From: an uncultured Bdellovibrionales bacterium | Lineage (GTDB): Bacteria > Patescibacteriota > Minisyncoccia > Moranbacterales > UBA2206 | Assembly: GCA_964438025.1 (NCBI GenBank) | Contig: CAYTIK010000001.1 | Location: forward strand, 47,557 to 101,584 | Direction: 5' to 3' | Length of the DNA: 54,028 nucleotides | In this document: positions 1,254 to 52,382 of the stretch, one piece after another | Layout: every line of letters starts with the position of its first letter | Position numbering within the stretch: position 1 is the first letter of the stretch | The notes under the pieces: generated by a model | What the model saw: the letters and a program-made list of their open reading frames with translations, nothing else | The model's database searches: none | What the model was told of the DNA's origin: nothing | Made by a program: the position numbers and the translations under genes

Positions 1254-1652
1254 ATGAACTCTAAGATAATTATCGCTTCCGGACCGGTTATTGTAGAAGA
1301 TAATAAAGTACTTTTAGACAAGGATAAAAAAGAAGATTTGTGGAAATTTTGCGGTGGAAAAGTATCTGAAAATAATTTAGATCTTATTAACACTGCCAAA
1401 AAAAGAGCTCAAGAGGAAATGGGAATAACTATTGAAATTCTAGATGAAAATCCTTTTGTTATGTATCTAAAAAGAAATATACAAGGAGAATTAATTGATG
1501 TTCTTTTGGTTCATTATCTAGCCAAAAGAATAGATGAAATTAATCCCGGAGGAGAAACAAAAGAATGGAGTTGGTTTGAGCTGAATAATTTACCTTCTAA
1601 TCTCGGACCCAACATTATTCCCGCTTTAAAACATTTTGGCTTTATTAAATAA
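1254..1652 (+). CDS. NUDIX hydrolase
   Basis: Nudix box GGKVSENNLDLINTAKKRAQEEMGI (GX5EX7REUXEEXGU pattern). Confidence 0.8.
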   Translation: MNSKIIIASGPVIVEDNKVLLDKDKKEDLWKFCGGKVSENNLDLINTAKKRAQEEMGITIEILDENPFVMYLKRNIQGELIDVLLVHYLAKRIDEINPGGETKEWSWFELNNLPSNLGPNIIPALKHFGFIK

Positions 1653-1656
1653 ATTC

Positions 1657-1795
1657 ACCCCGTTAAATAATTTTGCTAAAGCAAAATTAAGATTTGAATG
1701 CTTTCAAAAAAACAGGGTATATTTATTAAAGATAAATTTTTAATTTAAAAATAAGCTTGCATTTCTAAGGGAAATTCAAATCTTATTTAACAGGG
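1657..1795. repeat. Nested inverted-repeat element in the NUDIX-yjbQ spacer
   Basis: Outer IR CCCCGTTAAAT (1658-1668) / ATTTAACAGGG (1785-1795), 10/11. Inner IR AAGATTTGAAT (1689-1699) / ATTCAAATCTT (1774-1784), 11/11. Side hairpin AATTTTGC-taaa-GCAAAATT. The 16-mer ACCCCGTTAAATAATT recurs at 36325-36340 on the minus strand. Confidence 0.6.
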
Positions 1796-1798
1796 TAA

Positions 1799-2242
1799 AT
1801 GAAAATTATCCATCACGTTATCAAGATGAAAACCGCCGCGACTTTGGATTTCATCGACATTACCGAAAAAATCCAGCAAAAAATCAAAGAGACTGGCATT
1901 AAAAATGGTGTAATTAATATCCAAAGCTTGCACACGACCATGGCCATCATTATCAATGAAGCCGAACCACTGCTCATTTCTGACATGAAAACGCTGCTGG
2001 AAAAAATGGCGCCGCGGACTTTTAAGTATATGCACGATAATTTCGAAATCCGCACTGTCAATATGTGCGATGGAGAATGCCAAAACGGCCATGCCCACGC
2101 CAAGGCTATCCACTTGCCAAGTTCCGCTTTTTTAAATATACTACAAAACCATCTGCAATTGGGCCGATGGCAGCGGGTTTTCGCGGTCGAACTCGACCGC
2201 TCGAGAGTGAGAGAGGTTTCACTGCAAATTATAGGTCAATAG
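1799..2242 (+). CDS. YjbQ/UPF0047 family protein (secondary thiamine-phosphate synthase-like)
   Basis: Family-typical SLHTTMAIIINE..., NGHAHAKA..., LQLGRWQRVFAVELD pattern. Confidence 0.8.
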   Translation: MKIIHHVIKMKTAATLDFIDITEKIQQKIKETGIKNGVINIQSLHTTMAIIINEAEPLLISDMKTLLEKMAPRTFKYMHDNFEIRTVNMCDGECQNGHAHAKAIHLPSSAFLNILQNHLQLGRWQRVFAVELDRSRVREVSLQIIGQ

Positions 2243-3182: not shown

Positions 3183-3749
3183 TCATTTCTTATCAATTAT
3201 GTCTATTACGTTTTTTGGTAAGGGAATCTTTTTCATATAGCTCCATATAAAATTACCCTTCGCCATTATCGCATGCATAATCAAGCGCAGTAGAAACAAA
3301 ATTAACGCTTCAATGCCTAAGAGTATATAATAATCCGCCCAAACAATACCCGCGACAGCGTTTATTATTATCTTAGGTAAGGGCCCTGAAATAATCATTA
3401 TATAGATATATGCTACGCTTTTATTGTATTTGATTTCTTCTTCCAATCCCAACGATATTGGCCGCATTATGAATGGCATGCTTTTTGATTTGTTTTTTGT
3501 GGTCACAAGTATGTCAGTAATTGCTATCGCATAACCAGCGACAGAATTAATGATGATACATAACACAAATTTGTAAGGCTGATTAGTAATCGCCAATAAC
3601 AGCCAGTCCGCCACGCCTGTCCACCATTTTGATTCAACGCTAAGCTGAAGAATGTACATAACAGCAACAAATTCAATTGAAAGCAATGATGCTAACAAAA
3701 TTATAAGCACACCCGCACTAAAACCTCTACGATCATCCATTTTTTTCAT
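3183..3749 (-). CDS. Multi-pass membrane protein, unknown function
   Basis: Start moved to the internal MKKMDD: AGGAGG lies 6 nt upstream, and the longer ORF would run through an upstream hairpin. Several hydrophobic helices. Confidence 0.6.
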   Translation of the reverse strand: MKKMDDRRGFSAGVLIILLASLLSIEFVAVMYILQLSVESKWWTGVADWLLLAITNQPYKFVLCIIINSVAGYAIAITDILVTTKNKSKSMPFIMRPISLGLEEEIKYNKSVAYIYIMIISGPLPKIIINAVAGIVWADYYILLGIEALILFLLRLIMHAIMAKGNFIWSYMKKIPLPKNVIDIIDKK

Positions 3750-3829: not shown

Positions 3830-4249
3830 TCAAGGAGCTTTCATGTCTTGTTTCTTTTGCTCCTCCTTGATATCTGCCAGAATTTTCTTGCGTTTTTCGG
3901 TTTCCGAAATCCACTTTTTAATTTTTTCTCCTTGGTTATAAAAATCATTGAATTCTAGCCTGGACAAAACAACTACTCCATCGGGAAATTCAACCACAAA
4001 GTATCTGATATCTTTATACCTTTCGCTAGGTTCACTAGGTTCGATGTCTCCATGTTTTGAATGTCTTATTATTTCAAGAATGCGGACCCTTTCAATCTTG
4101 CCATTTCTCGCAATCTCAAAATGCGCTCCTACCATTTTTTCTACCCGATCAATTTCTCGGTCGGTTAATATATGCTCACCAACAAGCATAGCTAGCACAA
4201 ACACAAAAAAAACCACCCATATCTTATATTTCCTGATCCAATTTTTCAT
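3830..4249 (-). CDS. Single-pass membrane-anchored protein, unknown function
   Basis: Start moved to MKNWIRKYKIW (GGAGAAGAGG upstream). N-terminal TM helix. Confidence 0.55.
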   Translation of the reverse strand: MKNWIRKYKIWVVFFVFVLAMLVGEHILTDREIDRVEKMVGAHFEIARNGKIERVRILEIIRHSKHGDIEPSEPSERYKDIRYFVVEFPDGVVVLSRLEFNDFYNQGEKIKKWISETEKRKKILADIKEEQKKQDMKAP

Positions 4250-4461: not shown

Positions 4462-5196
4462 ATGCTTAAAAAAGAATTGGGAAAATTGAATCTTACGGAT
4501 AGAGAAGCCGGCGTATATATGGCTCTTTTGGAGCTGGGCGAAACCTCTATTGAAAGAATTTCCATGAAATCAAAGATAAAGAGAACCACAGTATATGATG
4601 TAATTGAAACGTTAAAAGACAAGGGCCTTATTGGAACCATTAAAAAGAAAAAACGAACTTTATATTATGCTGAGGATCCCCGAATTCTCGGGAATCAACT
4701 GGAAGAAAAGAAAACCGTCTTGAATAACATCCTCCCCCAGCTATTGTCTATCGCTAATTTCATAGATAAAAAACCTGATATCAGATTTTTTGAAGGCGCT
4801 GAAGGAATAAAAAATGTTTACCAAGATACGCTGAATTATCCCGGACAAGAAATTCTTATGTGGGGATCGACCGATGTATTTAAATATTTCGATGAAGATT
4901 TTATGTGGAATTATTATCTGCAAAAAAGAATTGAAAAGAAAATTTGGATGCGGGCCATCGGACAAGATTTGGAAGTTGTACGCAAGATTAAATCCGCTGA
5001 TAGTAAAAGCCTGCGCCAAACGCGCCTGCACAATTTCAAAGAATTCCCCTTTGATGTGGAAATTAATCTTTATGGAAAAAGTAAAATAGGCGTTATGGCA
5101 TTTCAAGAACAGATCGGGCTGATCATCGAAAGCGAAAAAATTTATAATACGCTAAAAAGCATCTTCGAATTGAATTGGAAAATGCTGGAAAAATAA
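4462..5196 (+). CDS. TrmB-family transcriptional regulator
   Basis: N-terminal winged-helix LTDREAGVYMALLELGETSIERISMKSKIKRTTVYDVIETLKDKGLI. Confidence 0.8.
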   Translation: MLKKELGKLNLTDREAGVYMALLELGETSIERISMKSKIKRTTVYDVIETLKDKGLIGTIKKKKRTLYYAEDPRILGNQLEEKKTVLNNILPQLLSIANFIDKKPDIRFFEGAEGIKNVYQDTLNYPGQEILMWGSTDVFKYFDEDFMWNYYLQKRIEKKIWMRAIGQDLEVVRKIKSADSKSLRQTRLHNFKEFPFDVEINLYGKSKIGVMAFQEQIGLIIESEKIYNTLKSIFELNWKMLEK

Positions 5197-6304: not shown

Positions 6305-6342
6305 ATACTACATTTTATTGCATATGCAATGATTTATAGTAT
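6305..6342. promoter_or_regulatory. 38-nt composite palindrome immediately 3' of the PaaX-like gene
   Basis: ATACTACATTTTATTGCATATGCAATGATTTATAGTAT. Central perfect 14-bp palindrome ATTGCATATGCAAT plus outer 8-nt arms. Confidence 0.8.
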
Positions 6343-6912
6343 TTAGTTTAATCTAAAAAAGGATCTTACATTTTGATCATTTTCTATTTCACAAGCAGTT
6401 ATAATTTTAATTTCTTCTTTGCTTAAATTAAAGAAATTTCTTAAAACCCCTGCTTCCTTTTGAAAATCATATGGATAGACCCAAACACTTTTTTGCAATT
6501 GAAACAATCCCAATTCTTTGATTTTTCCTCTTAAATATTCTCTCTTTATATTATCTCTGTTTTTTATATCAAATATTAAAATTCTCCATTTTTTATCCCA
6601 TCTTTCTGGTTTTTGTATTTTCAAATCATCAATTTGATATTTCCCCGCTGCTTTTTTTCCTTCTTTGGTGAGAGAAATATAAATTTGCTTACCTCTATAT
6701 TCAAATTTTATCATATCCCTTTTTTTCAAACGATAAAAAGTATCGTAAAATTCTTTCTTCTTTTTCGCGCTGTTTACTTTATAAGAAATACTTTTTATTA
6801 TTTTCGGAAGCACACGCATGAAAAAATGCGGATCATTAGCTGAGATAATTATAGCACCCCCAATCAAAAGACTTTTAAAAATTGTTTTAGTTATTTCTTT
6901 TTTATTCAACAT
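6343..6912 (-). CDS. PaaX-like / Cas2-fold domain protein with an N-terminal hydrophobic segment and a winged-helix-like region
   Basis: WDKKWRILIFDIKNRDNIKREYLRGKIKELGLFQLQKSVWVYPYD matches the PaaX central Cas2-like pattern. Paralog at 35502-36080. Confidence 0.6.
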   Translation of the reverse strand: MLNKKEITKTIFKSLLIGGAIIISANDPHFFMRVLPKIIKSISYKVNSAKKKKEFYDTFYRLKKRDMIKFEYRGKQIYISLTKEGKKAAGKYQIDDLKIQKPERWDKKWRILIFDIKNRDNIKREYLRGKIKELGLFQLQKSVWVYPYDFQKEAGVLRNFFNLSKEEIKIITACEIENDQNVRSFFRLN

Positions 6913-31995: not shown

Positions 31996-32035
31996 TTATT
32001 TGGTGGACATGTCTTAATTATAATTTTTTGGCAAT

Positions 32036-32485
32036 TTAATCGTTATACGGATCTTGTTCGATATATTTATTCAGATCGGAGAGCGCATCTTCAAGAGCTT
32101 CTAAGTTCTCTTGCTTAATTTTTTGACCGCTTCTTCTTGCAGAATCATAGATATTCATTAAAAATGCAAGAAGTCCATGAATATCAAGTACTTTGTCATA
32201 ATTTAACATTTTTCCATTTTCATCAAACGCTTCCGTGTATAACCCCTCTAATCTTAGGCTTAATGCCTCTAGTACTGGCGCTGTTGATTTGAAACTTAAT
32301 TCTGGTTCAATCATTACTTCTCTATTATCTCTACGACCTTCAAATACTGATGAAATAATCGGTTTTTCATGTGGTTTAAACGAAAATATTTGTTTAAATT
32401 TACCCAAATTTTTTATGGGATCTGGGATCTTTTTTTTATCCTCTTGTGACATAGGTATGCCTCCAAATATTTTTGCTTCATCCAT
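32036..32485 (-). CDS. Hypothetical protein
   Basis: Clean ORF, last gene of the accessory block; no motif recognised. Confidence 0.5.
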   Translation of the reverse strand: MDEAKIFGGIPMSQEDKKKIPDPIKNLGKFKQIFSFKPHEKPIISSVFEGRRDNREVMIEPELSFKSTAPVLEALSLRLEGLYTEAFDENGKMLNYDKVLDIHGLLAFLMNIYDSARRSGQKIKQENLEALEDALSDLNKYIEQDPYND

Positions 32486-32645
32486 ATTTTTATTCTTTAA
32501 TTATTATAATTAAACTTCGTCACAACTTAGCTAGACAGCAATAATTCCTAATTCAGCCGAAAGTTTCTTAAAAATTTTATATAAATTATTCGGATGTAAT
32601 TAAAAGTTTTTGTTTTTCCAATTAGGCAAAATGGATTATTTAGAG

Positions 32646-33692
32646 CTATTTTTTATTTTTATCCATTTTCGTTTTAATTCCCTTGATTTCTGATTTTAGT
32701 ATGTTAATTTCTCCAATCGCATTATTAAGCATTTTTCTCAAATCCTCGTTATCATGAACAAGTTCTGCGACATTTGGATCGTTAATTCTACTTTCCTGCC
32801 TAAATCCTTTTTGTCCAACACCTTCTTCTTCTAAGTCAACAAAAACTACTCTCTCCTGTTCATCGGTCCAGCTGTCAATTTTTTTAGTATAATCGGCAAC
32901 AGATTTTTGATACTTAATTATTTCCTCCAATGCAACGGCAGGATCTTTTGGCATTTCATTCCAGCGAGGCTCTTTTGGCGGCCTAGGCTTTCTGTTGCTT
33001 GGATCTCCGTAATGAGCTGTTGAAATAAGCCAATCTCCTTCAGGATCATCGATGGTTGGCCCATCAGCAGCCTCATATTTAGGGGGGTTAGAATTTGGAA
33101 TTTCGTTTTTCTGCACAATTACATATATCGATGACTCTAATTCTATCATCCATCGAGGTATATCGCTTTTTTTAATTACAAAACATTTTTTACCATGCCT
33201 AACCTTAATATCACCATTCTGATTCCAATCTGCAATGTGCTCAGCAAGCTCAGTCCCGCTTTCATTTGGAATTACAAATCGGCCTGGCATTCCGGTACCG
33301 TCAGGTAGTTCCAGCTTAAAATATCTTGAACCTACCTGCGGAGATTTAATTTTATCAGTAACCTCTTTGCCATTAACTAAACATTGAACAATATGTTTCG
33401 TATTTATTTTCTTTTCAAATAAATGACCAGCGATGTACATATTTGCAACGGCCTTTTCATTAATAGGCATCGCCGGTTTTACGCCATCTGGTAAATTTTT
33501 AATTGCTTCTGACCATTCCCCTCTAAACTCCTCGAGCAGCCGTTGTTTTTCAATTACTAACTTGGCTGTTTTTTGCATCGTTTCATATTTTTGTCTTATT
33601 GGATATACATCATCTACTTCTTGATTTATTTTCCAAGCATCTTCCTGTATTTTTTCCATTTCTACTGGTGTTGGCGTAAATTGTTCTTTCAT
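32646..33692 (-). CDS. Hypothetical protein (MKEQ N-terminus, C-terminal coiled coil)
   Basis: Clean 348-aa ORF; the 5' end ATGAAAGAACAA is shared with its two upstream neighbours. Confidence 0.55.
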   Translation of the reverse strand: MKEQFTPTPVEMEKIQEDAWKINQEVDDVYPIRQKYETMQKTAKLVIEKQRLLEEFRGEWSEAIKNLPDGVKPAMPINEKAVANMYIAGHLFEKKINTKHIVQCLVNGKEVTDKIKSPQVGSRYFKLELPDGTGMPGRFVIPNESGTELAEHIADWNQNGDIKVRHGKKCFVIKKSDIPRWMIELESSIYVIVQKNEIPNSNPPKYEAADGPTIDDPEGDWLISTAHYGDPSNRKPRPPKEPRWNEMPKDPAVALEEIIKYQKSVADYTKKIDSWTDEQERVVFVDLEEEGVGQKGFRQESRINDPNVAELVHDNEDLRKMLNNAIGEINILKSEIKGIKTKMDKNKK

Positions 33693-33697
33693 GTTTT

Positions 33698-34360
33698 TTA
33701 ATTAGCTTTTAATTGATTGTTGTTTTCAATTAATTTTAATAGTTTTTCCTTTATTTTTTCTTTATTTTCTTTTGTGTAAAAAGCGTCTTTATGAAAGTGA
33801 CCACCAATCTTTCCGAATCCTTTAATCCTTACTCCTTTCCTAATCTTTCCATGTTCTTCTATTTCTTTTAATCCTATAATTACGTCTACTAATTGATTTC
33901 CTTTAATTAAAGCTTCTTGTCCTCCTAATTTTTCTGCAAGGTATGAAATAGCCAATAGATTTTTTTCCTTAAGAATACTCTCTACTAGTAACTTTTTAAA
34001 ATCTATGCCACATTCGTCAAACTTTTCTATTTGTTTAGCAATTTCATAACCATCGCCTTTATCAAAAATTCTTTCGATTATATCTTTTTTATCAATGTCT
34101 TTAAAATATTCTAAACAATCTACTAATGGTTCGTACCAACCTTTTTCTATAAATCGACGAGCCATTTCCTGACGCATTTCATCTGGACAATACTTTAGTT
34201 TTTTAAGCATATCGGGATATTCGGCGCCGGACATAGATAATGCCGTTTTCTTTTCAGCCTCAGGATAATCCTCGGCTTTTCCTGAATCGACTAGTTTTTT
34301 TAAGCGTGAGGCTTCATCTTGTGCTTCTTCAAAAGTATATTTTGGCATTTGCTCTTTCAT
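33698..34360 (-). CDS. Hypothetical protein sharing an approximately 42-aa N-terminal module with 34408-35169
   Basis: MKEQMPKYTFEEAQDEASRLKKLVDSGKAEDYPEAEKK versus MKEQMPMPQYSHDEAREEASRMEEFIKKGEAKDCPSAEKK. Confidence 0.55.
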   Translation of the reverse strand: MKEQMPKYTFEEAQDEASRLKKLVDSGKAEDYPEAEKKTALSMSGAEYPDMLKKLKYCPDEMRQEMARRFIEKGWYEPLVDCLEYFKDIDKKDIIERIFDKGDGYEIAKQIEKFDECGIDFKKLLVESILKEKNLLAISYLAEKLGGQEALIKGNQLVDVIIGLKEIEEHGKIRKGVRIKGFGKIGGHFHKDAFYTKENKEKIKEKLLKLIENNNQLKAN

Positions 34361-34407
34361 AGAATTATTTATTTTAATTGTAAAAAAATTATATATATCA
34401 GCCTAAG

Positions 34408-35169
34408 CTATTTCTCAAAAATTATTCCAAAAGTTGGTGAAAGTTGCTTGTCGACTTTTACTCCAATTTCTTCCAATGATTTTTCCTGCGATCCGACAAA
34501 AGTAAGTTTTCCTTCCTTGACCGCAGCAAATTCTTCACCTGACCAATAAGCAGAAGCAAAACCTCGGTCAGATGTGTATATCCTCATTTTTACTCCGTTA
34601 ACTTCACCCTCTTCAAATGGAATACTAAGGATTTTTTGTAATTCTTTATCGGCCGCTTTCTTTTTTTCATCTTCCGAAGCATTTTTCAGCCAATTTAAAG
34701 CATTATGAAATTGTTCAAATTTTTTAGTAGGTGGTAAATCTGCATGAGAATTTTCATCCATTGAAACGGAAGCTAGAACTAGCCAAGGTTCTTTTTCTTC
34801 AGTTTTTAAAGAACCCGGTCCCATACGATGGGCACGCATTGTTGGCTCACTAATTTTGCCATTTAAAGCTAACTCCAAAGAAGCCGGATCTGAACCACGG
34901 GATAATACTCGATTAGCAAACATAGCCTCATTGCCTTCTAATTTAAGTGCGTCAGATACAAGATTTGCTGTTTCATTATCTATTAAACGGTTCTTCCTTG
35001 CTTCTTCTATTTTTTGTGTAATTTCCTTGATAGCCCTCTCACGCTCAACTTTTTTTTCGGCTGATGGACAATCCTTAGCTTCTCCTTTTTTTATAAATTC
35101 CTCCATGCGAGAAGCTTCTTCGCGAGCTTCATCATGAGAATATTGCGGCATTGGCATTTGTTCTTTCAT
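34408..35169 (-). CDS. Hypothetical protein, first gene of the accessory block
   Basis: Clean 253-aa ORF with the shared N-terminal module. Confidence 0.55.
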   Translation of the reverse strand: MKEQMPMPQYSHDEAREEASRMEEFIKKGEAKDCPSAEKKVERERAIKEITQKIEEARKNRLIDNETANLVSDALKLEGNEAMFANRVLSRGSDPASLELALNGKISEPTMRAHRMGPGSLKTEEKEPWLVLASVSMDENSHADLPPTKKFEQFHNALNWLKNASEDEKKKAADKELQKILSIPFEEGEVNGVKMRIYTSDRGFASAYWSGEEFAAVKEGKLTFVGSQEKSLEEIGVKVDKQLSPTFGIIFEK

Positions 35170-35373
35170 AATGTTTTTAAATTAATTATAAAAATTAACC
35201 TCTAATGATCTCGCCTATGATGGAAAAACTTTTAATTATTTCCAATAACTAGTTACATGCGAAGTATTTATAATTTAATTATACCACAAGTTCCAACCTA
35301 TTCTAAGGCAATAAAAACAAGGTCCAAGAGGCTTTATTTTTAACCCGTAATCCCACAAATTCCTGTTAAATTC

Positions 35374-35407
35374 ATAACAAATTATTGCGATAGCAAAAAT
35401 TTGTTAT
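35374..35407. promoter_or_regulatory. 34-nt composite palindrome
   Basis: ATAACAAA-tta-TTGCGATAGCAA-aaa-TTTGTTAT; the outer arms are perfect 8 bp. Confidence 0.75.
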
Positions 35408-35440
35408 TTTTATCACTTATCTAGTGCTAAAATAATCCAT

Positions 35441-35476
35441 TACCTCATTTTCATGCGATAGCAAGAATTTGAGGTA
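35441..35476. promoter_or_regulatory. 36-nt composite palindrome 3' of the second PaaX-like gene
   Basis: TACCTCA-ttttca-TGCGATAGCA-agaatt-TGAGGTA. Confidence 0.75.
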
Positions 35477-35501
35477 CATAATTTTTAGTTATCTCTAAAC
35501 A

Positions 35502-36080
35502 CTATCCTATCTCGAAATGATTTTTTAATTCCCTATCATTTTCTATCTTGCTGGCTACAATAAATTGCATTTCACTTGAGCTAAACCCAAAAAATGATCT
35601 AAGAAGTTCTATTTCTTTTTCAAAATCATAAGGATAAACCCAAACGCTTTTTTGCAGTTGAAACAGTCCTAGTTGTTTTATTTTTCCTCTTAACGCTTCC
35701 CTTTTGAGTTTTTGCTTATCTTTAATATCAAAAATAAGTATTCTCCATTTTTCATCCCACTTACTGGGTTTTTTTATTTCCAAATCGTCTATTTGATACT
35801 TCCCAGCCTTTTTTCTGCCTTCCTTAGTCAGAGAAATATAAATTTGGCCGTTTTTATTCTCAAATTGAATTAGGTCTTCTTTTTTCAGTCGATAAAAAGT
35901 ATTGTAAAATCTTTTTTTATATTTTATATTTTTAATCTTATAACCGGCATATTTAACAATTTTCGGTAAAACTCTCGAAACAAAATATGGAGAAGTTGCG
36001 GCGACTGCGATACTTCCCACCAAAAGCATACCTCTAAATATATTTTTAGCTATTTGATTTTTATTTTTTAAAGTCTTCAC
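35502..36080 (-). CDS. PaaX-like / Cas2-fold domain protein, paralog of 6343-6912
   Basis: WDEKWRILIFDIKDKQKLKREALRGKIKQLGLFQLQKSVWVYPYD. About 75% identical to the paralog over the C-terminal half, by eye. Confidence 0.6.
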   Translation of the reverse strand: MKTLKNKNQIAKNIFRGMLLVGSIAVAATSPYFVSRVLPKIVKYAGYKIKNIKYKKRFYNTFYRLKKEDLIQFENKNGQIYISLTKEGRKKAGKYQIDDLEIKKPSKWDEKWRILIFDIKDKQKLKREALRGKIKQLGLFQLQKSVWVYPYDFEKEIELLRSFFGFSSSEMQFIVASKIENDRELKNHFEIG

Positions 36081-36133
36081 GACAAAAACCTTTTTTAAAA
36101 CTTAATCCCGTCTCATATAATTTATAATTATTA

Positions 36134-36169
36134 TACCTCATTTTCATGCTATAGCAAGAAAATAAGGTA
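36134..36169. promoter_or_regulatory. 36-nt composite palindrome 5' of the second PaaX-like gene
   Basis: TACCTCATTTTCATGCTATAGCAAGAAAATAAGGTA, 32/36 identical to 35441-35476. The core TGCTATAGCA is a perfect palindrome. Confidence 0.75.
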
Positions 36170-36189
36170 TAAACAAAAGTTAATGTTTG

Positions 36190-36218
36190 TGGACCCAGGC
36201 AGAATCGAACTGCCGTCT
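36190..36218 (-). tRNA. 3' portion of a tRNA-Ala-like gene (variable loop, T-arm, acceptor 3' strand, discriminator)
   Basis: Minus strand reads AGAC GGCAG TTCGATT CTGCC TGGGTCC A. The acceptor strand pairs 7/7 (with G3.U70) with GGGCCCA at 36389-36395. Confidence 0.6.
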
Positions 36219-36242
36219 CAACAATGCGCCCCATTAAATTAT

Positions 36243-36316
36243 TGGTGGACTTAGCGAGAATCGAACTCGCGTCTCCGCAATGCGAATGCGGCGTGCTACC
36301 ACTATACCATAAGCCC
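36243..36316 (-). tRNA. tRNA-Ala (anticodon CGC), CCA encoded
   Basis: GGGCTTA TG GTAT AGTGGTA GCAC G CCGCA TTCGCAT TGCGG AGAC GCGAG TTCGATT CTCGC TAAGTCC ACCA. G3.U70 is present. Confidence 0.9.
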
Positions 36317-36350
36317 GAATAATGAATTATTTAACGGGGTAAAAATGTCG

Positions 36351-36395
36351 CGTCTGCCTGCTGGCAGGCAGGTTATACCACTAGACCATGGGCCC
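36351..36395 (-). tRNA. 5' portion of a tRNA-Ala-like gene (acceptor 5' strand, D-arm, aberrant palindromic anticodon-arm substitute)
   Basis: GGGCCCA TG GTCT AGTGGTA TAAC C, then the 18-nt palindrome CTGCCTGCCAGCAGGCAG. Only 4-, 6- or 8-nt loops are possible. No T-arm follows. Confidence 0.55.
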
Positions 36396-36400
36396 TAAAA

Positions 36401-37585
36401 TTATAAATATTTTTTTCCTTTTAATTCCTTCGGTAAATATTCTTGCTCCGAGCTATCCTCTACTGGCGTATATTTGTAGCCCTGGCCGTATTTTAAATCT
36501 TTCATTAATTTTGTGGGCGCGTTCCGGATATGGAGCGGCACCGGCAAATTACCCCATTTTTCCACATCTTCCTTGGCTTTATTATAAGCTTCATAAGCTA
36601 CGATGCTTTTCTGACTTTTGGCCAAATAAATTACGCATTGCGCCAAATGGACGTTGCATTCAGGATAACCTAACTTGTGGCAGGCGTCAAAAACCGCATT
36701 GGCTAAAAGAAGAGCTGTATTATTAGCCAGCCCGATATCTTCACTAGCAAAACGCACTAATCTCCGAGCAATATAGAGCGGATCTTCCCCGCCTTCCACC
36801 ATCCGCGCCAGCCAATAAACGGCCGCATCCGCATCGCCGCCGCGCATGGATTTATGCAGCGCGGAAATTATATTATAATGTTCTTCCCCGCTTTTATCAT
36901 AAAGCAGATGGGATTTTTGCAAAACTTTTTTGACCAATTCTTCCGTCACTTCCACCCTTTGATTTAAACACGCTTCCAAGGTATTGAGAGCCATCCGGGC
37001 GTCGCCGTTGGAAAAACGCGCAATCATTTTCAAAATATCCGTTTTGACTTTTTTCTGTATTTTCTGCAACGCTCTTTGGAGAATTTTTTCAATATCTTCA
37101 TTGCCCAATCTTTGCAAAACAAAAACTCTGGCGCGAGAAAGTAAAGCGGAGATAACTTCAAAACTGGGATTTTCCGTGGTCGCCCCGATTAAAGTCAGCG
37201 TTCCGTTTTCTACTTGCGGCAAGAGCGCGTCCTGCTGGGCTTTATTCCAGCGATGAATTTCATCGATAAACAATACTGTTTTACGCCCGATTTTTCTATT
37301 CCCTTTGGCTCTTTCAATAATTTTCAACAAATCTTTTTTACCGCTCGATACCGCGCTTAAATTCAAAAAATCCGACTGCGTTTCTTTGGCAATAATAAAA
37401 GCCAGGGTGGTTTTGCCGCTCCCTGGCGGTCCCCAAAAAATCAAAGACGGTACGCGATCACTCTTAATTGCCCCCCTCAAGAAGGAACCTTGGCCCAAAA
37501 GCTCTGCCTGCCCAAAAACCTCCTCAAGACTTTGAGGACGGATAATATCGGCTAAAGGTGCATTGAGTGCAGAGTTATTTTCCAT
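36401..37585 (-). CDS. rarA: Replication-associated recombination protein A (AAA+ ATPase)
   Basis: [21 protein letters not shown], MgsA C-terminal domain. Start moved to MENNSALN. Confidence 0.92.
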
Positions 37586-37623: not shown

Positions 37624-37914
37624 CCCCGCGCTAACTTTCGTTCAAAGATTTTTTGATTCTTTTTCGCAGTTGCGCCCAGGCTTGTCCGAATTGTTTAATT
37701 TGTTTTTCCCTCTCTTCAGCATCCTCTTTTGAAAGATAAGCTTCGCAATAAATAAGTTTCCATTTATGATTTTTCGTAGAAAAAGAATTGCCATTGTTAT
37801 GCTCAAAAAATCTTTTTTTTAGATTATTAGTATAGCCATAATACAATTTCTGGATTTCATTTTTAATCACGTAAAAATAATACATATAGAATAATAACGA
37901 AAGTTAGTGCGGGA
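37624..37914 (-). mobile_element. TIR-bounded GIY-YIG mini-element, intact copy
   Basis: Arms CCCCGCGCTAACTTTCGTT (37624-37642) and AACGAAAGTTAGTGCGGGA (37896-37914) are 17/19 complementary. 291 bp in total. Confidence 0.75.
37631..37885 (-). CDS. GIY-YIG nuclease family protein (YhbQ/UPF0213-like, 84 aa)
   Basis: YFYVIKN...LYYGYTNNLKKRFFEHN...CEAYLSKEDAEEREKQIK (GIY / YIG / R / E pattern). Confidence 0.85.
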   Translation of the reverse strand: MYYFYVIKNEIQKLYYGYTNNLKKRFFEHNNGNSFSTKNHKWKLIYCEAYLSKEDAEEREKQIKQFGQAWAQLRKRIKKSLNES

Positions 37915-51922: not shown

Positions 51923-51958
51923 CCCGCCCGCATCGCTACGCGAAGCGTGGCGGGCGGG
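51923..51958. repeat. 36-nt GC-rich hairpin element abutting the tmRNA 5' end
   Basis: CCCGCCCGCATCGCTACGCGAAGCGTGGCGGGCGGG, 31/36 identical to the ileS copy. Confidence 0.85.
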
Positions 51959-52371
51959 GGTTGTTAAGTTTCGACAATTTGTACTTTCCAAACAAGCAAG
52001 CCGAGGATGATAATAGCTCGCTAAACCTTTATCAAAAGTTATAAGTGCCAACTTCATAACTAAAGCAAAATCGGTATTAGCTAACGCTTTTACCGCAAAT
52101 TTTGCCCTAGCCTTAGCCTAACCGCTTCCAAGCGGAGTTAAGGTTCATCGAATTGCCGATTTCTCATAGGCAAACCTCGGTGTCATATATGAGGATAGTC
52201 AAATAAGGCGTTCTAAACTTTTTTGGCGAAGCTAAATTTAGAAATAGATTGAGAAGGTTTTGTCCGCTTTCCACTTCCTAATCGAAGCTCGCAAGGCTTT
52301 AAAGCTGAATACGCTTGTAGAATGTTTTGAAAGAATAAATTTGGACGCGAGTGCAATTCTCGCCAACTCCA
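51957..52371 (+). ncRNA. ssrA: tmRNA (SsrA)
   Basis: 5' GGGGUUG...UUCGAC. 3' T-arm GCGAG-UGCAAUU-CUCGC and acceptor CAACUCC-A, giving a 7-bp stem with G3.U70. Tag ORF ends ...ANAFTANFALALA-UAA (52065-52121). Lies directly after smpB. Confidence 0.88.
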
Positions 52372-52382
52372 CTAATCATTAA

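Follow-up and report, generated by a model that had tools for sequence, protein, structure and literature searches.

The comparative analysis presented here points to the interruption, at the DNA level, of a resident tRNA-Ala(CGC) gene, and we consider it probable (roughly 80%) that the arrangement is a snapshot of recurrent, site-specific replacement by inverted-repeat-bounded cassettes that carry a tRNA gene of their own. The stretch of DNA analyzed (hereafter, the window) spans 54,028 nucleotides. The anatomy of the locus, its orthology with an uninterrupted gene, the repeated use of the same insertion site, the presence of relics and the recurrence of an inverted-repeat arm are all direct observations. 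The same event at the same spot in close relatives points to an undescribed mode of tRNA gene replacement, and literature searches returned no description of such tRNA nests.

In order to define the insertions, comparison loci were anchored by RarA homologues with 83-93% identity to that of the window. The closest relative, L087 (RarA 93% identical), harbors an uninterrupted 71-nt tRNA-Ala(CGC) gene, located 5 nt past the rarA stop codon and presenting the same T-arm (GGCAG/CTGCC) as the interrupted gene of the window. The interrupted, resident gene is referred to as the outer (N-type) gene and the complete gene within it as the inner (I-type) gene. The features of the region are as follows.

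36401 to 37585, minus strand: rarA, encoding replication-associated recombination protein A (Pfam RuvB_N, AAA and MgsA_C), the upstream syntenic anchor.
36372 to 36395, minus strand: outer tRNA-Ala(CGC) positions 1-25, acceptor 5' strand and D-arm; the same 24-mer is the 5' part of ordinary 72-nt tRNA-Ala(CGC) genes in L081-L084 and of the L087 ortholog.
36352 to 36371, minus strand: insertion 1, between tRNA positions 25 and 26, comprising palindrome CTGCCTGCCAGCAGGCAG (36371-36354) and AC (36353-36352); absent from L087, L096 and L081-L084, present in L086.
36344 to 36351, minus strand: outer tRNA positions 26-33, comprising G26, the anticodon-stem 5' strand CGACA, U32 and U33; GCGACATT is the same in L087 and L096.
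36229 to 36343, minus strand: insertion 2, the 115-nt cassette, which separates U33 from C34 within the anticodon loop; defined against the uninterrupted L087 gene, with the same site and terminal motifs in L096.
36243 to 36316, minus strand: inner I-type tRNA-Ala(CGC), complete, with G3.U70, A73 and encoded CCA (ARAGORN; Rfam RF00005, 62.7 bits).
36190 to 36228, minus strand: outer tRNA positions 34-73, comprising anticodon CGC, A37, U38, TGTTG, the AGAC variable loop, T-arm, acceptor 3' strand and A73; 38 of its 39 bases equal positions 33-71 of the L087 gene.
32009 to 36189, minus strand: island of ~4.2 kb between the tRNA locus and glyQS; absent from L087, L090, L097 and L123, which present the order rarA-tRNA-glyQS.

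The initial annotation of this DNA had read the ends of the outer gene on the minus strand as GGGCCCATGGTCTAGTGGTATAAC (36395-36372) and AGACGGCAGTTCGATTCTGCCTGGGTCCA (36218-36190). Both strings agree with our reading in letters and coordinates, as does the pairing of the acceptor strands at all seven positions, G3.U70 included. The 3' piece had, however, been taken to begin at the variable loop, whereas it spans 36228-36190 and includes the anticodon CGC (36228-36226), followed downstream by the T-arm GGCAG/TTCGATT/CTGCC and the acceptor 3' strand TGGGTCC, with no encoded CCA. The anticodon-stem halves CGACA (36350-36346) and TGTTG (36223-36219) flank the cassette, BLAST maps N positions 23-32 to 36353-36344, and the anticodon hairpin of the outer gene reads CGACATT^CGCATTGTCG (here and below, ^ marks the junction). 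The sole change in the 3' piece with respect to the L087 gene is C42 to T, which leaves the stem paired at this point through G.U. Once both insertions are taken out, the outer sequence of the window equals the L087 gene at 70 of 71 bases and is identified by ARAGORN as a tRNA-Ala(CGC). Joining the halves at the boundaries first proposed yielded only 'tRNA-???' calls with 6- or 8-nt anticodon loops, because the palindrome is a separate insertion. As judged from sequence, the outer halves represent the tRNA-Ala(CGC) gene that is resident in this lineage of Patescibacteria (Moranbacteria-like), located directly after rarA. The outer tRNA is redundant, because the inner tRNA carries the same anticodon, and we infer that the halves are a recent relic yielding no tRNA any more; with the 20-nt hairpin left in place at the 25/26 hinge, ARAGORN no longer calls a normal tRNA. 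Against a non-functional outer gene stands the state of its halves, which are hardly decayed, with one substitution in the window and an anticodon stem that is still paired.

The first of the two insertions had been described as an 18-nt perfect palindrome occupying the place of the outer anticodon arm. It is in fact an additional insertion of 18-20 nt at 25/26, and its symmetry is broken by a CA centre between the arms CTGCCTGC and GCAGGCAG, the fold being a 7-bp stem with a 4-nt CCAG loop. The adjoining AC is possibly a 2-nt duplication of positions 24-25. The palindrome occurs once in the window and presents one loop change in L086; as a terminator for rarA it was discarded, the terminator scan having found none. 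The tetranucleotide AGAC, earlier reported at both junctions, corresponds to the palindrome end plus the duplicated AC in one instance and to the variable loop in the other. It was rejected as a target-site duplication, since the true junctions lie elsewhere, between 36344 and 36343 and between 36229 and 36228.

The cassette itself is non-coding and consists of TTTA, the left arm CCCCGTTAAAT (36339-36329), 12 nt of spacer, the inner tRNA, ATA and the right arm ATTTAATGGGG (36239-36229). The arms form the 11-bp bracketing helix already noted in the initial annotation, which contains a single G.U that pairs on the tRNA-sense strand only. The sense strand of the locus folds to -74.9 kcal/mol (z = -3.3), and none of 200 shuffles folds as well, versus z = -1.4 for the antisense strand, so that the structure exceeds chance expectation. 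The junctions read CATT^TTTA on the left and GGGG^CGCA on the right, with no direct repeats and no target-site duplication. The inner gene (36316-36243), likewise recognized from the outset, was confirmed by ARAGORN and by Rfam, its score of 62.7 bits comparing with a gathering score of 29. It combines a cloverleaf with G3.U70, A73 and anticodon CGC, as expected of a functional tRNA-Ala, and is presumably the working tRNA. Its acceptor strands (GGGCTTA/TAAGTCC) match each other and not those of the outer gene (GGGCCCA/TGGGTCC). At a relaxed threshold, Rfam searches of the window locus, L096 and the dispersed inverted-repeat element described next returned only the inner tRNAs, together with weak tmRNA and plastid hits that reflect T-arm similarity. 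The 16-mer ACCCCGTTAAATAATT of the left arm has an exact second copy within the 54 kb, at 1657-1672 of the window, with an inverted partner at 1781-1796, and inverted-repeat elements related to the cassette arm occur in L051 and L015, which suggests that the arm is a member of a dispersed inverted-repeat family. A 17-mer at 34585-34601 resembling the left junction lies inside a coding region and was judged a chance occurrence.

A second nest was identified in L096 (RarA 86% identical), where N positions 1-33 are followed by TTTATCCCGTACCAAAATTAT, a complete D-type tRNA-Ala(CGC), CATTTAATTTTTGGTGCGGGG and N positions 34-73, the junctions being U33^C34 as in the window. The flank helix of L096 spans 13 bp, is unlike that of the window in sequence and shows four double compensatory changes relative to it; the cassette termini TTTAYCCCG ... 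YGGGG are common to both. Pairing between leader and trailer is exceptionally strong for both nested tRNAs, at -25.8 kcal/mol in the window and -28.3 kcal/mol in L096, versus a median of -11.2 kcal/mol for 38 tRNAs in related loci. The outer gene of L096 differs from the L087 gene at only two positions, both in the T-stem, and the locus also contains an outer decayed D-type 3' relic. The initial annotation had named, as grounds against its own readings, a simple unexpressed pseudogene, unique to this genome, at a site where relatives carry two ordinary tandem genes. Relatives present instead a single ordinary gene, and L096 provides a second instance of the arrangement.

Further loci harbor decayed forms. 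In L091-L095, L099 and L112, a D-type tRNA is followed by a segment ending in TTGGTGCGGGG^CGC with a decayed N 3' part, and then by a segment ending in TTGGTGCGGAA^CGC with a decayed canonical-type 3' part. These relic 3' parts start at the same junction, GGGG^CGC, and the relic form is present in at least six assemblies. In L091, two cargo tRNAs (D and N) have near-identical right ends, TTTTTGGTGCGG(GG/AA), and the intact gene at that locus has a 5' half that does not match the 3' relics. In all, three types of outer gene (N, canonical and D) account for five junctions at 33/34, to within 2 nt. The converse loss is seen in L086, where the 3' half is gone and the N 5' piece is retained together with the palindrome, a left flank in decay and the I-type tRNA; this I-type gene is the sole intact tRNA at the locus and is identical to that of the window at 69 of 71 bases, and a variant of it is found in L124. 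Comparison of the window with L086 gives 39 of 41 identical positions for the N 5' fragment together with the palindrome, and only 21 of 39 aligned columns for the adjacent flank, a high identity of the outer 5' piece that hints at residual constraint or some function.

The gene type at the locus varies (N, C, D, E, I) among genomes with RarA 83-93% identical to that of the window, and the distribution of the insert is at odds with RarA/GlyRS relationships: the insert is missing from L087, although L086 is more distant from the window than L087 is, and lateral allele exchange or precise loss is therefore required. We infer mobility of the cassette by comparison among loci, because the complete nests found number only two (window and L096, both in the orthologous N-type gene) and no cassettes with the same ends were found at unrelated sites. 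No circular or empty-site intermediate was seen. Beyond the anchored loci, no tRNA-Ala was found after rarA in 50 species-level RarA relatives (60-73% identity), which are too distant for synteny, the closer relatives having been reached via protein clusters. Scans of metagenomes returned no matches to the 5' fragment with its palindrome (TCTAGTGGTATAACCTGCC) and 24 to the right junction (GGGGCGCRTTGTYGAGACGG), of which 22 are chance matches in high-GC coding DNA and two the L091-type relic. Viral contigs scanned for each of the three tRNA types (I, D and N) likewise gave no hits, and the 209-nt unit had no BLAST match in phage or plasmid collections, and hence no support was obtained for a phage or plasmid origin.

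The host is an uncultured groundwater bacterium in which a tmRNA is present (Rfam). In its genome, rarA ends with a stop codon 5 nt upstream of the outer tRNA, and the 4.2-kb island starts directly after the outer tRNA 3' end (..GGGTCCA) and stops directly before a second tRNA 3'-end remnant, GTCCACCA (32008-32001), past which the native terminator and glyQS promoter resume, as established by comparison with L087. The island shows that the tRNA locus between rarA and glyQS is an insertion hot spot. No integrase was found in the six neighboring ORFs (Pfam, PHROGs), and no transposase or recombinase in the 54-kb window or beside the nests. In L124, an ORF between rarA and the I-type tRNA-Ala matches Y1_Tnp (IS200-like) with 31.5 bits versus a cut-off of 23, its REP-transposase NCBIfam score being under cut-off. 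By GC skew, the sense strand of the nest is the lagging-strand template; the G.T wobbles occur on this strand only, and the insertion point is a hairpin loop, 3' of ATT. Among recombination models considered and rejected, an integron attC-like reading of GTTAAAT/ATTTAAC presents the boxes in reversed order, and the junction sequences do not fit the overlap of tyrosine recombinases or the dinucleotide of serine recombinases.

Of the rival explanations, the one that fares best operates at the RNA level, although we regard it as improbable. It holds that the inner tRNA behaves as an intron or divides a two-piece tRNA: excised by RNase P and a 3' nuclease from a transcript of the whole unit, it would leave outer halves that are either ligated or kept together by pairing in the acceptor stem (7 bp), in the anticodon stem and in the 11-bp helix, giving a second alanine-accepting tRNA or tRNA-like RNA. 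The sense strand does fold as fully nested cloverleaves (z = -3.3), as does the L096 nest (z = -4.5). The restriction of G.U pairs to the sense strand, the covariation of the helix between window and L096, the near intactness of the outer halves, with their one substitution compensated as G.U, the insertion after U with a terminal G, as in group I introns, and the unusual conservation of the outer 5' piece in L086 are also what this explanation would lead one to expect. The region nevertheless contains no group I core, the inner tRNA being its only Rfam family at gathering score, the junctions lack bulge-helix-bulge geometry, and we know of no set of bacterial enzymes able to carry out excision and rejoining at sites of this kind. 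Such a product would moreover duplicate the inner anticodon and carry the hairpin at 25/26, while the gene is uninterrupted in the nearest relative and its 5' or 3' half is lost or decayed in others. The same observations weigh against the split or intron-like tRNA proposed as one reading in the initial annotation, and we found no evidence for another, a tRNA-like decoy; its third reading, a tRNA gene disrupted by a tRNA-carrying insertion, is borne out by the uninterrupted L087 ortholog and by the 70/71 match and ARAGORN call obtained once the insertions are removed.

Marginally less credible is a one-off local rearrangement that involves no dedicated mobile cassette, for instance the repair of a break, a template switch at the anticodon hairpin or the uptake of a stray DNA fragment, with the likeness to L096 due to shared ancestry and later conversion of the inner gene. 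Such an account would draw on the finding of just two full nests, both in the same orthologous N-type gene, and of no enzyme, and has difficulty with five same-position junctions in three outer gene types, with two different cargo tRNAs sharing near-identical right ends in L091, and with a cassette arm that appears to belong to a dispersed inverted-repeat family.

A shade less likely again, the nest could represent leftovers of an island or prophage integrated by an integrase of the anticodon-loop class, most of the element having been deleted later and the tRNA fragments displaced. The locus is an island hot spot, with the 4.2-kb island lodged between ..GGGTCCA and the remnant GTCCACCA, and 3' fragments starting in the anticodon loop are reportedly the classical signature of class I tRNA integration. 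Integration of this kind, however, would create a hybrid gene, with its 5' part from the resident and its 3' part from the element, and would leave the crossover segment directly repeated, whereas the inner gene is complete and self-consistent and the junctions lack direct repeats. The insert is only 115 bp and inverted-repeat-bounded, the six neighboring ORFs gave no integrase, and the L091 3' relics do not correspond to the 5' half of the intact gene there. Finally, the nest is real and no artefact, because an independent ENA assembly (L085) is 100% identical over the 320 nt of the locus, so that the misassembly raised in the initial annotation, which would here be a chimera of two strain alleles, conceivable in metagenomic data with several tRNA-Ala alleles in related strains, can be given almost no weight, the more so as the junction sequences TTTACCCC.. 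and ..TGGGG are in neither allele, an analogous nest comes from an unrelated sample (L096) and the relic form recurs across assemblies.

Under the preferred reading, replacement of the resident gene from within, hairpin-ended tRNA-Ala(CGC) cassettes would target the anticodon loop of whichever tRNA-Ala(CGC) occupies the rarA-glyQS locus in this Moranbacteria-like clade. In the window, the 115-bp cassette would have entered between U33 and C34, bringing a complete tRNA-Ala(CGC) of another sequence type, and the 18-20-bp palindrome would have entered the outer gene at 25/26 in a separate event. Ordinary 5' and 3' tRNA processing (RNase P, 3' trimming) would free the inner tRNA from the transcript, and the outer shell would then decay or be deleted. 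As to the enzyme, a transposase of HUH/Y1 type, single-strand and hairpin-loop-directed, acting on the lagging-strand template is a candidate only, hinted at by the loop target, the lack of target-site duplication, the strand bias of the wobbles and the Y1_Tnp ORF of L124. More tentatively, and at somewhat below even odds, we propose that these loci represent a new class of tiny non-autonomous tRNA replacement cassettes, each composed of a hairpin and a tRNA-Ala(CGC), that would open at the hairpin loop and insert at U33/C34 of a gene for the same isoacceptor through loop-to-loop single-strand transfer by an HUH/Y1-type enzyme in trans. Insertion would be harmless because the cassette brings a spare tRNA, and successive rounds would leave Russian-doll nests with decaying shells. 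In this more tentative view, transcripts of a nest may in addition give rise to a nicked, tRNA-like by-product of the outer gene.

Genes for tRNAs are classic landing sites of mobile DNA, but the elements known to use them measure kilobases and make good only the part of the tRNA that they displace; here, a protein-free insert of 115 bp carries a whole tRNA and sits precisely in the anticodon loop of a gene for its own isoacceptor. If the cassettes are mobile, they would constitute a new, minimal kind of selfish element that neutralizes its own damage, and a concrete mechanism for the rapid replacement of one tRNA gene variant by another observed here between very close relatives with the reduced genomes of Patescibacteria. 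They would also offer a bacterial, DNA-level counterpart to the idea, developed for archaea, that conflict with mobile elements gives rise to interrupted and split tRNA genes. Nests and relics stay unannotated because tRNA finders report the inner gene only.

Disrupted tRNAs of archaea include bulge-helix-bulge introns, split and tri-split tRNAs and transposing tRNA introns (Fujishima 2009 and 2010, as cited in PMC10714607). The nest resembles them in that halves are parted by an insert whose ends pair beside the anticodon stem, with signs of the interrupting sequence moving between tRNA genes. It differs in its bacterial host, in an insert that is a tRNA of the same specificity, and in evidence pointing to a DNA-level event with decay of the outer gene. 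A bulge-helix-bulge motif, defined by two 3-nt bulges, a 4-bp helix between them and both splice sites on the motif, is absent from the window nest, where the predicted fold presents an asymmetric 6/5-nt internal loop followed by the 11-bp helix; manual pairing of i2-i5 with positions 35-38 gave two of four pairs only. Split tRNAs of the Nanoarchaeum type come from separate, distant transcription units with no intact gene, whereas the outer halves lie 115-135 nt apart on one strand, with an intact tRNA of the same anticodon in between.

An interrupted anticodon loop in a bacterial tRNA gene is also seen with group I introns, as in cyanobacterial tRNA-Leu(UAA) and Azoarcus tRNA-Ile (bioRxiv 10.1101/2020.01.27.920355). 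The cassette obeys their end rule (U last in exon, G last in intron) at ..CGACATT^TTTA.. and ..TGGGG^CGC.., an agreement expected by chance in ~1 of 16 cases. A group I catalytic core (P3-P9; Rfam RF00028) was found neither in the window when searched at gathering threshold, nor in 35900-36700 when searched at E<=10, nor in L096; the cassette is instead 115 nt of helix and tRNA, and the host gene is redundant with the insert.

Integrative elements that target tRNA genes (genomic islands and prophages) share the anticodon-loop sublocation, the compensation of disruption by insert-borne sequence and the displaced tRNA fragments left behind, and the 4.2-kb island beside a tRNA 3'-end remnant adds to the likeness at the window locus. 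Such elements, however, restore the gene with a matching 3' segment, whereas the cassette is 115 bp, non-coding and provides a whole independent tRNA gene, with inverted-repeat ends, no direct repeats and no integrase found.

From REP/REPIN and IS200/IS605-derived palindrome-associated elements, mobilized by Y1/HUH enzymes, the cassette differs in the very low copy number seen and in the lack of a cognate transposase in the window, and to our knowledge neither a functional tRNA cargo nor insertion inside a hairpin loop has been described for them. The likeness to these elements extends to small size, non-coding content, hairpin-forming inverted repeats, a hairpin target with no target duplication, and arms at or near the ends as in REP/REPIN or MITE-like elements (CCCCGTTAAAT and ATTTAATGGGG, 11 bp, in the window; 13 bp in L096), as well as to a strand asymmetry fitting single-stranded DNA, an arm that recurs elsewhere and a Y1_Tnp ORF at the homologous locus of L124.

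All sequence strings quoted by the initial annotation were recovered at their positions on the minus strand, and the complete inner tRNA-Ala(CGC) at 36316-36243 was called by ARAGORN, as the only tRNA of the 54-kb window, and scored 62.7 bits against Rfam. RarA homologues place the window in the Patescibacteria, near Moranbacteria/Moraniibacteriota, and an ordinary tmRNA (51957-52374; Rfam) identifies the host as a bacterium. The 24-nt outer 5' string also occurs in four other Patescibacteria genomes, as the 5' part of a plain, uninterrupted 72-nt tRNA-Ala(CGC) without encoded CCA. The decisive comparison is with L087, a locus from a relative whose RarA and GlyRS are 93% and 91% identical to those of the window. 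Its tRNA-Ala(CGC), 5 nt past the rarA stop, reads GGGCCCATGGTCTAGTGGTATAAC-G-CGACA-TTCGCAT-TGTCG-AGAC-GGCAG-TTCGATT-CTGCC-TGGGTCC-A, has the T-arm seen in the outer 3' half of the window's gene, and lies ahead of a terminator and glyQS. Re-reading the window's outer gene against this uninterrupted gene places both insertions.

Anatomy of the outer tRNA gene, from alignment to the L087 gene
36395-36372, minus strand, outer tRNA positions 1-25
36371-36352, minus strand, insertion 1, the palindrome CTGCCTGCCAGCAGGCAG plus AC
36351-36344, minus strand, outer tRNA positions 26-33, GCGACATT
36343-36229, minus strand, insertion 2 (115 nt), comprising in order TTTA, CCCCGTTAAAT, a 12-nt spacer, the complete tRNA-Ala(CGC), ATA and ATTTAATGGGG
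36228-36190, minus strand, outer tRNA positions 34-73, CGCATTGTTGAGAC...TGGGTCCA

Once both insertions are taken out, the outer gene agrees with that of L087 at 70 of 71 bases and is called by ARAGORN as tRNA-Ala(CGC); the sole substitution, C42 to T, leaves a G.U pair in the anticodon stem. This bears out the suggestion of the initial annotation that a tRNA gene was disrupted by a tRNA-carrying insertion, but the same alignment revises its anatomy: the palindrome, which had been read as standing in for the anticodon arm, is an insertion of its own at the hinge between D-arm and anticodon arm, the tRNA-bearing insert lies in the anticodon loop at U33/C34 and not in the variable loop, and neither AGAC motif is a junction repeat. 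A cassette with hairpin ends that bears a whole tRNA of the same specificity interrupts the anticodon loop of a resident tRNA gene. Independent assemblies and samples rule out misassembly; L085, an independent ENA assembly from a groundwater metagenome, has a 320-nt intergenic region identical to that of the window.

The inner tRNA is of a different sequence type from the outer one (acceptor GGGCTTA/TAAGTCC, G3.U70, A73, encoded CCA). The cassette junctions share no direct repeat (CATT|TTTA versus GGGG|CGCA), and in a circularised insert the two ends would pair perfectly over 11 bp, as a hairpin with TTTA in its loop. The left-arm 16-mer, ACCCCGTTAAATAATT, has an exact second copy at 1657-1672 of the window and an inverted partner at 1781-1796, and related small inverted-repeat elements, with arms TTCACCC[C/A]GTTAAATA and TATTTAACAGGGT around variable hairpins and without a match in Rfam, occur twice in L051 and also in L015, two other loci. 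The cassette ends look like a repeat family. The dispersed element, one arm of which is common to the tRNA cassette, lies in intergenic regions (window 1650-1800; L051 5002-5071 and 7148-7217; L015 2820-2875 and ~2986), often ending at a start codon, and its hairpins vary in sequence but are alike in shape.

The rarA-linked locus was compared across genomes with RarA 83-93% identical to that of the window. L096 (RarA 86%; a Logan assembly from a different sample) is a second nest, ordered N(1-33), then TTTATCCCGTACCAAAATTAT, a complete D-type tRNA-Ala(CGC) (Rfam 64.3 bits) and CATTTAATTTTTGGTGCGGGG, then N(34-73). Its junctions are identical to those of the window, U33|C34, and its outer halves, which lack the palindrome and are broken by the cassette only, match the L087 gene at 69 of 71 bases when joined, both differences lying in the T-stem. 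Most positions of the flanking helix, UCCCGUACCAAAA/UUUUGGUGCGGGG, are changed relative to the helix of the window, with pairing retained; the two helices share the start TTTAYCCCG and the end YGGGG. The outer N gene of L096 is itself bracketed by a further helix, CGATAAATTTGG/CCAAATTTATCG, and followed by a decayed D-type 3' fragment, and therefore has a third shell around it. In the L091 group (L091-95, L099 and L112; RarA 90%, at least six assemblies) a D-type tRNA directly follows rarA, and 3' of it lie ..TTTTGGTGCGGGG|CGC with a decayed N-type 3' part bearing a T-loop insertion and then ..TTTTGGTGCGGAA|CGC with the 3' remains, likewise decayed, of a canonical-type tRNA-Ala. L086 (RarA 85%) retains the N 5' piece with the palindrome (39 of 41 bases as in the window), a left flank that has degraded (matches in 21 of 39 aligned columns) and an I-type tRNA (69/71), and has lost the 3' half. 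The other loci each carry a single plain tRNA-Ala(CGC), and five sequence types were found overall.

Sequence types of tRNA-Ala(CGC) at the compared loci
N type: L087, L123, L081
Canonical type: L090, L088, L122
D type: L091 group, inner gene of L096
E type: L097
I type: L124, L086, inner gene of the window

This turnover is very high for such close genomes. A total of five junctions, in outer genes of three different types, lie at or within 2 nt of 33/34, and among the Patescibacteria loci examined orphan tRNA-Ala halves occur only at these nests. For the two nested tRNAs, leader-trailer pairing reaches -25.8 and -28.3 kcal/mol, well beyond anything seen in 38 other tRNAs (median -11.2, next best -16.4). 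The anticodon loop has been interrupted at least twice at this position, and outer shells have been lost with time. At L088 (3222-3301) and L122 (2686-2741) the canonical-type gene has an encoded CCA, and between it and rarA lies a hairpin-like insert of 50-80 nt (TTGTCATTGC ... GGGCGTGGYAAT) that may be a further cassette flank.

The most surprising reading would be an RNA-level intron or a two-piece tRNA. The 209-nt sense strand has a predicted fold of -74.9 kcal/mol (z = -3.3; antisense unremarkable, z = -1.4), fully nested from outer acceptor stem and T-arm through a stem and the 11-bp helix to the inner cloverleaf. Besides this sense-strand structure, helix covariation, the near-intact state of the outer halves and the boundary nucleotides U...G favour that reading, but neither a group I core nor a bulge-helix-bulge motif was found, the outer tRNA would be redundant with the inner one, the palindrome occupies the 25/26 hinge in the window, the L087 orthologue is uninterrupted, and outer pieces are lost or degraded in relatives. 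Classical integrase integration into a tRNA gene fails, since the inner gene is complete and self-consistent, a crossover repeat and an integrase were not found, and in L091 the 3' relics and the 5' half of the intact gene are mismatched.

For the interrupted resident gene, we infer that the inner gene is the functional one, freed by normal tRNA processing, that the outer halves are relics and that the cassettes are mobile. The best candidate enzyme, a weak one, would be a single-strand, hairpin-directed HUH/Y1 transposase or nickase, because target duplication is absent, insertion is into a DNA-hairpin loop 3' of ATT, a hairpin is also formed by the ends of the cassette itself, G.T wobbles occur on the sense strand only in all three helices, that strand being the lagging-strand template by GC skew, and a 215-aa Y1_Tnp ORF (IS200-like, weakly REP-transposase-like) lies at the homologous locus in L124 (2765-3412), inserted between rarA and an I-type tRNA-Ala(CGC). 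No such gene was found in the window or beside the nests.

Between the window and L086 the N 5' fragment and palindrome are conserved to the same degree as the functional tRNA, in contrast to the diverged flank next to them; if neutral divergence there were 20-30%, two or fewer differences in 41 nt would have a probability of 0.007 to 0.00008. The fragment may have acquired a role; its D-loop, TGgTATAAC, has some likeness to an extended -10 promoter element, a purely speculative link. The allele occurs in the window and L086 and not in L087, which is closer to the window, a distribution that implies either precise loss or lateral exchange. The GC-rich palindrome has near-copies (CCTGCCTGCCGGCAGGCAGG) at other Patescibacteria loci: L042 (4323-4342), L043 (3155-3172; apparently between 6-nt direct repeats, AATCTT) and L010 (1429-1449; with the look of a bidirectional terminator).

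Between the tRNA locus and glyQS lies a ~4.2-kb island (32009-36189, minus-strand genes), not found in the closest relatives, which starts directly after the outer tRNA 3' end (..GGGTCCA) and ends directly before a second tRNA 3'-end remnant, GTCCACCA (32008-32001), beyond which come the ancestral terminator and the promoter of glyQS. The island genes code for one PaaX_M/Cas2-like and four hypothetical proteins, with no integrase among them. In three genomes the 189-192-aa PaaX_M gene (Cas2-like domain) is bracketed by palindrome copies of ~36-42 nt with the core TTGCTATAGCAA; the arrangement has the look of a gene cassette in its own right or of an operator pair.

Palindrome copies around the PaaX_M gene
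Window: 36134-36169, 35441-35476, 35373-35408
L088: about 3385-3430, 4020-4060
L096: about 4000-4045, 4640-4690

A second PaaX-like copy lies at ~6322-6888 of the window. An 84-aa stand-alone GIY-YIG nuclease-domain ORF (37631-37885, minus strand) sits between tgt and rarA in the window and L085 only, and not in L087, L088 or L090. The GlyRS of L090 (3403-4704) is only 58% identical to the window's, though RarA is 90% identical, which suggests that glyQS next to the tRNA hot spot has been replaced there too.

The closest known systems are tRNA-targeting integrative elements that compensate the disruption, hairpin elements of the REP/REPIN and IS200/IS605 types, bacterial group I introns in anticodon loops (bioRxiv 10.1101/2020.01.27.920355), and interrupted or split tRNAs of archaea, whose introns transpose (covered, with introns in CPR rRNA genes, in PMC10714607). 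The nested locus does not fully share the defining features of any of these four phenomena, and neither a tRNA gene lodged in the anticodon loop of another nor tRNA-carrying mini-cassettes were found described in full-text literature searches. We put at somewhat below even odds the substantial possibility that such cassettes are minimal mobile elements of a new class; the locus itself is rated as a compensated insertion into a tRNA gene, a known phenomenon in a new form.
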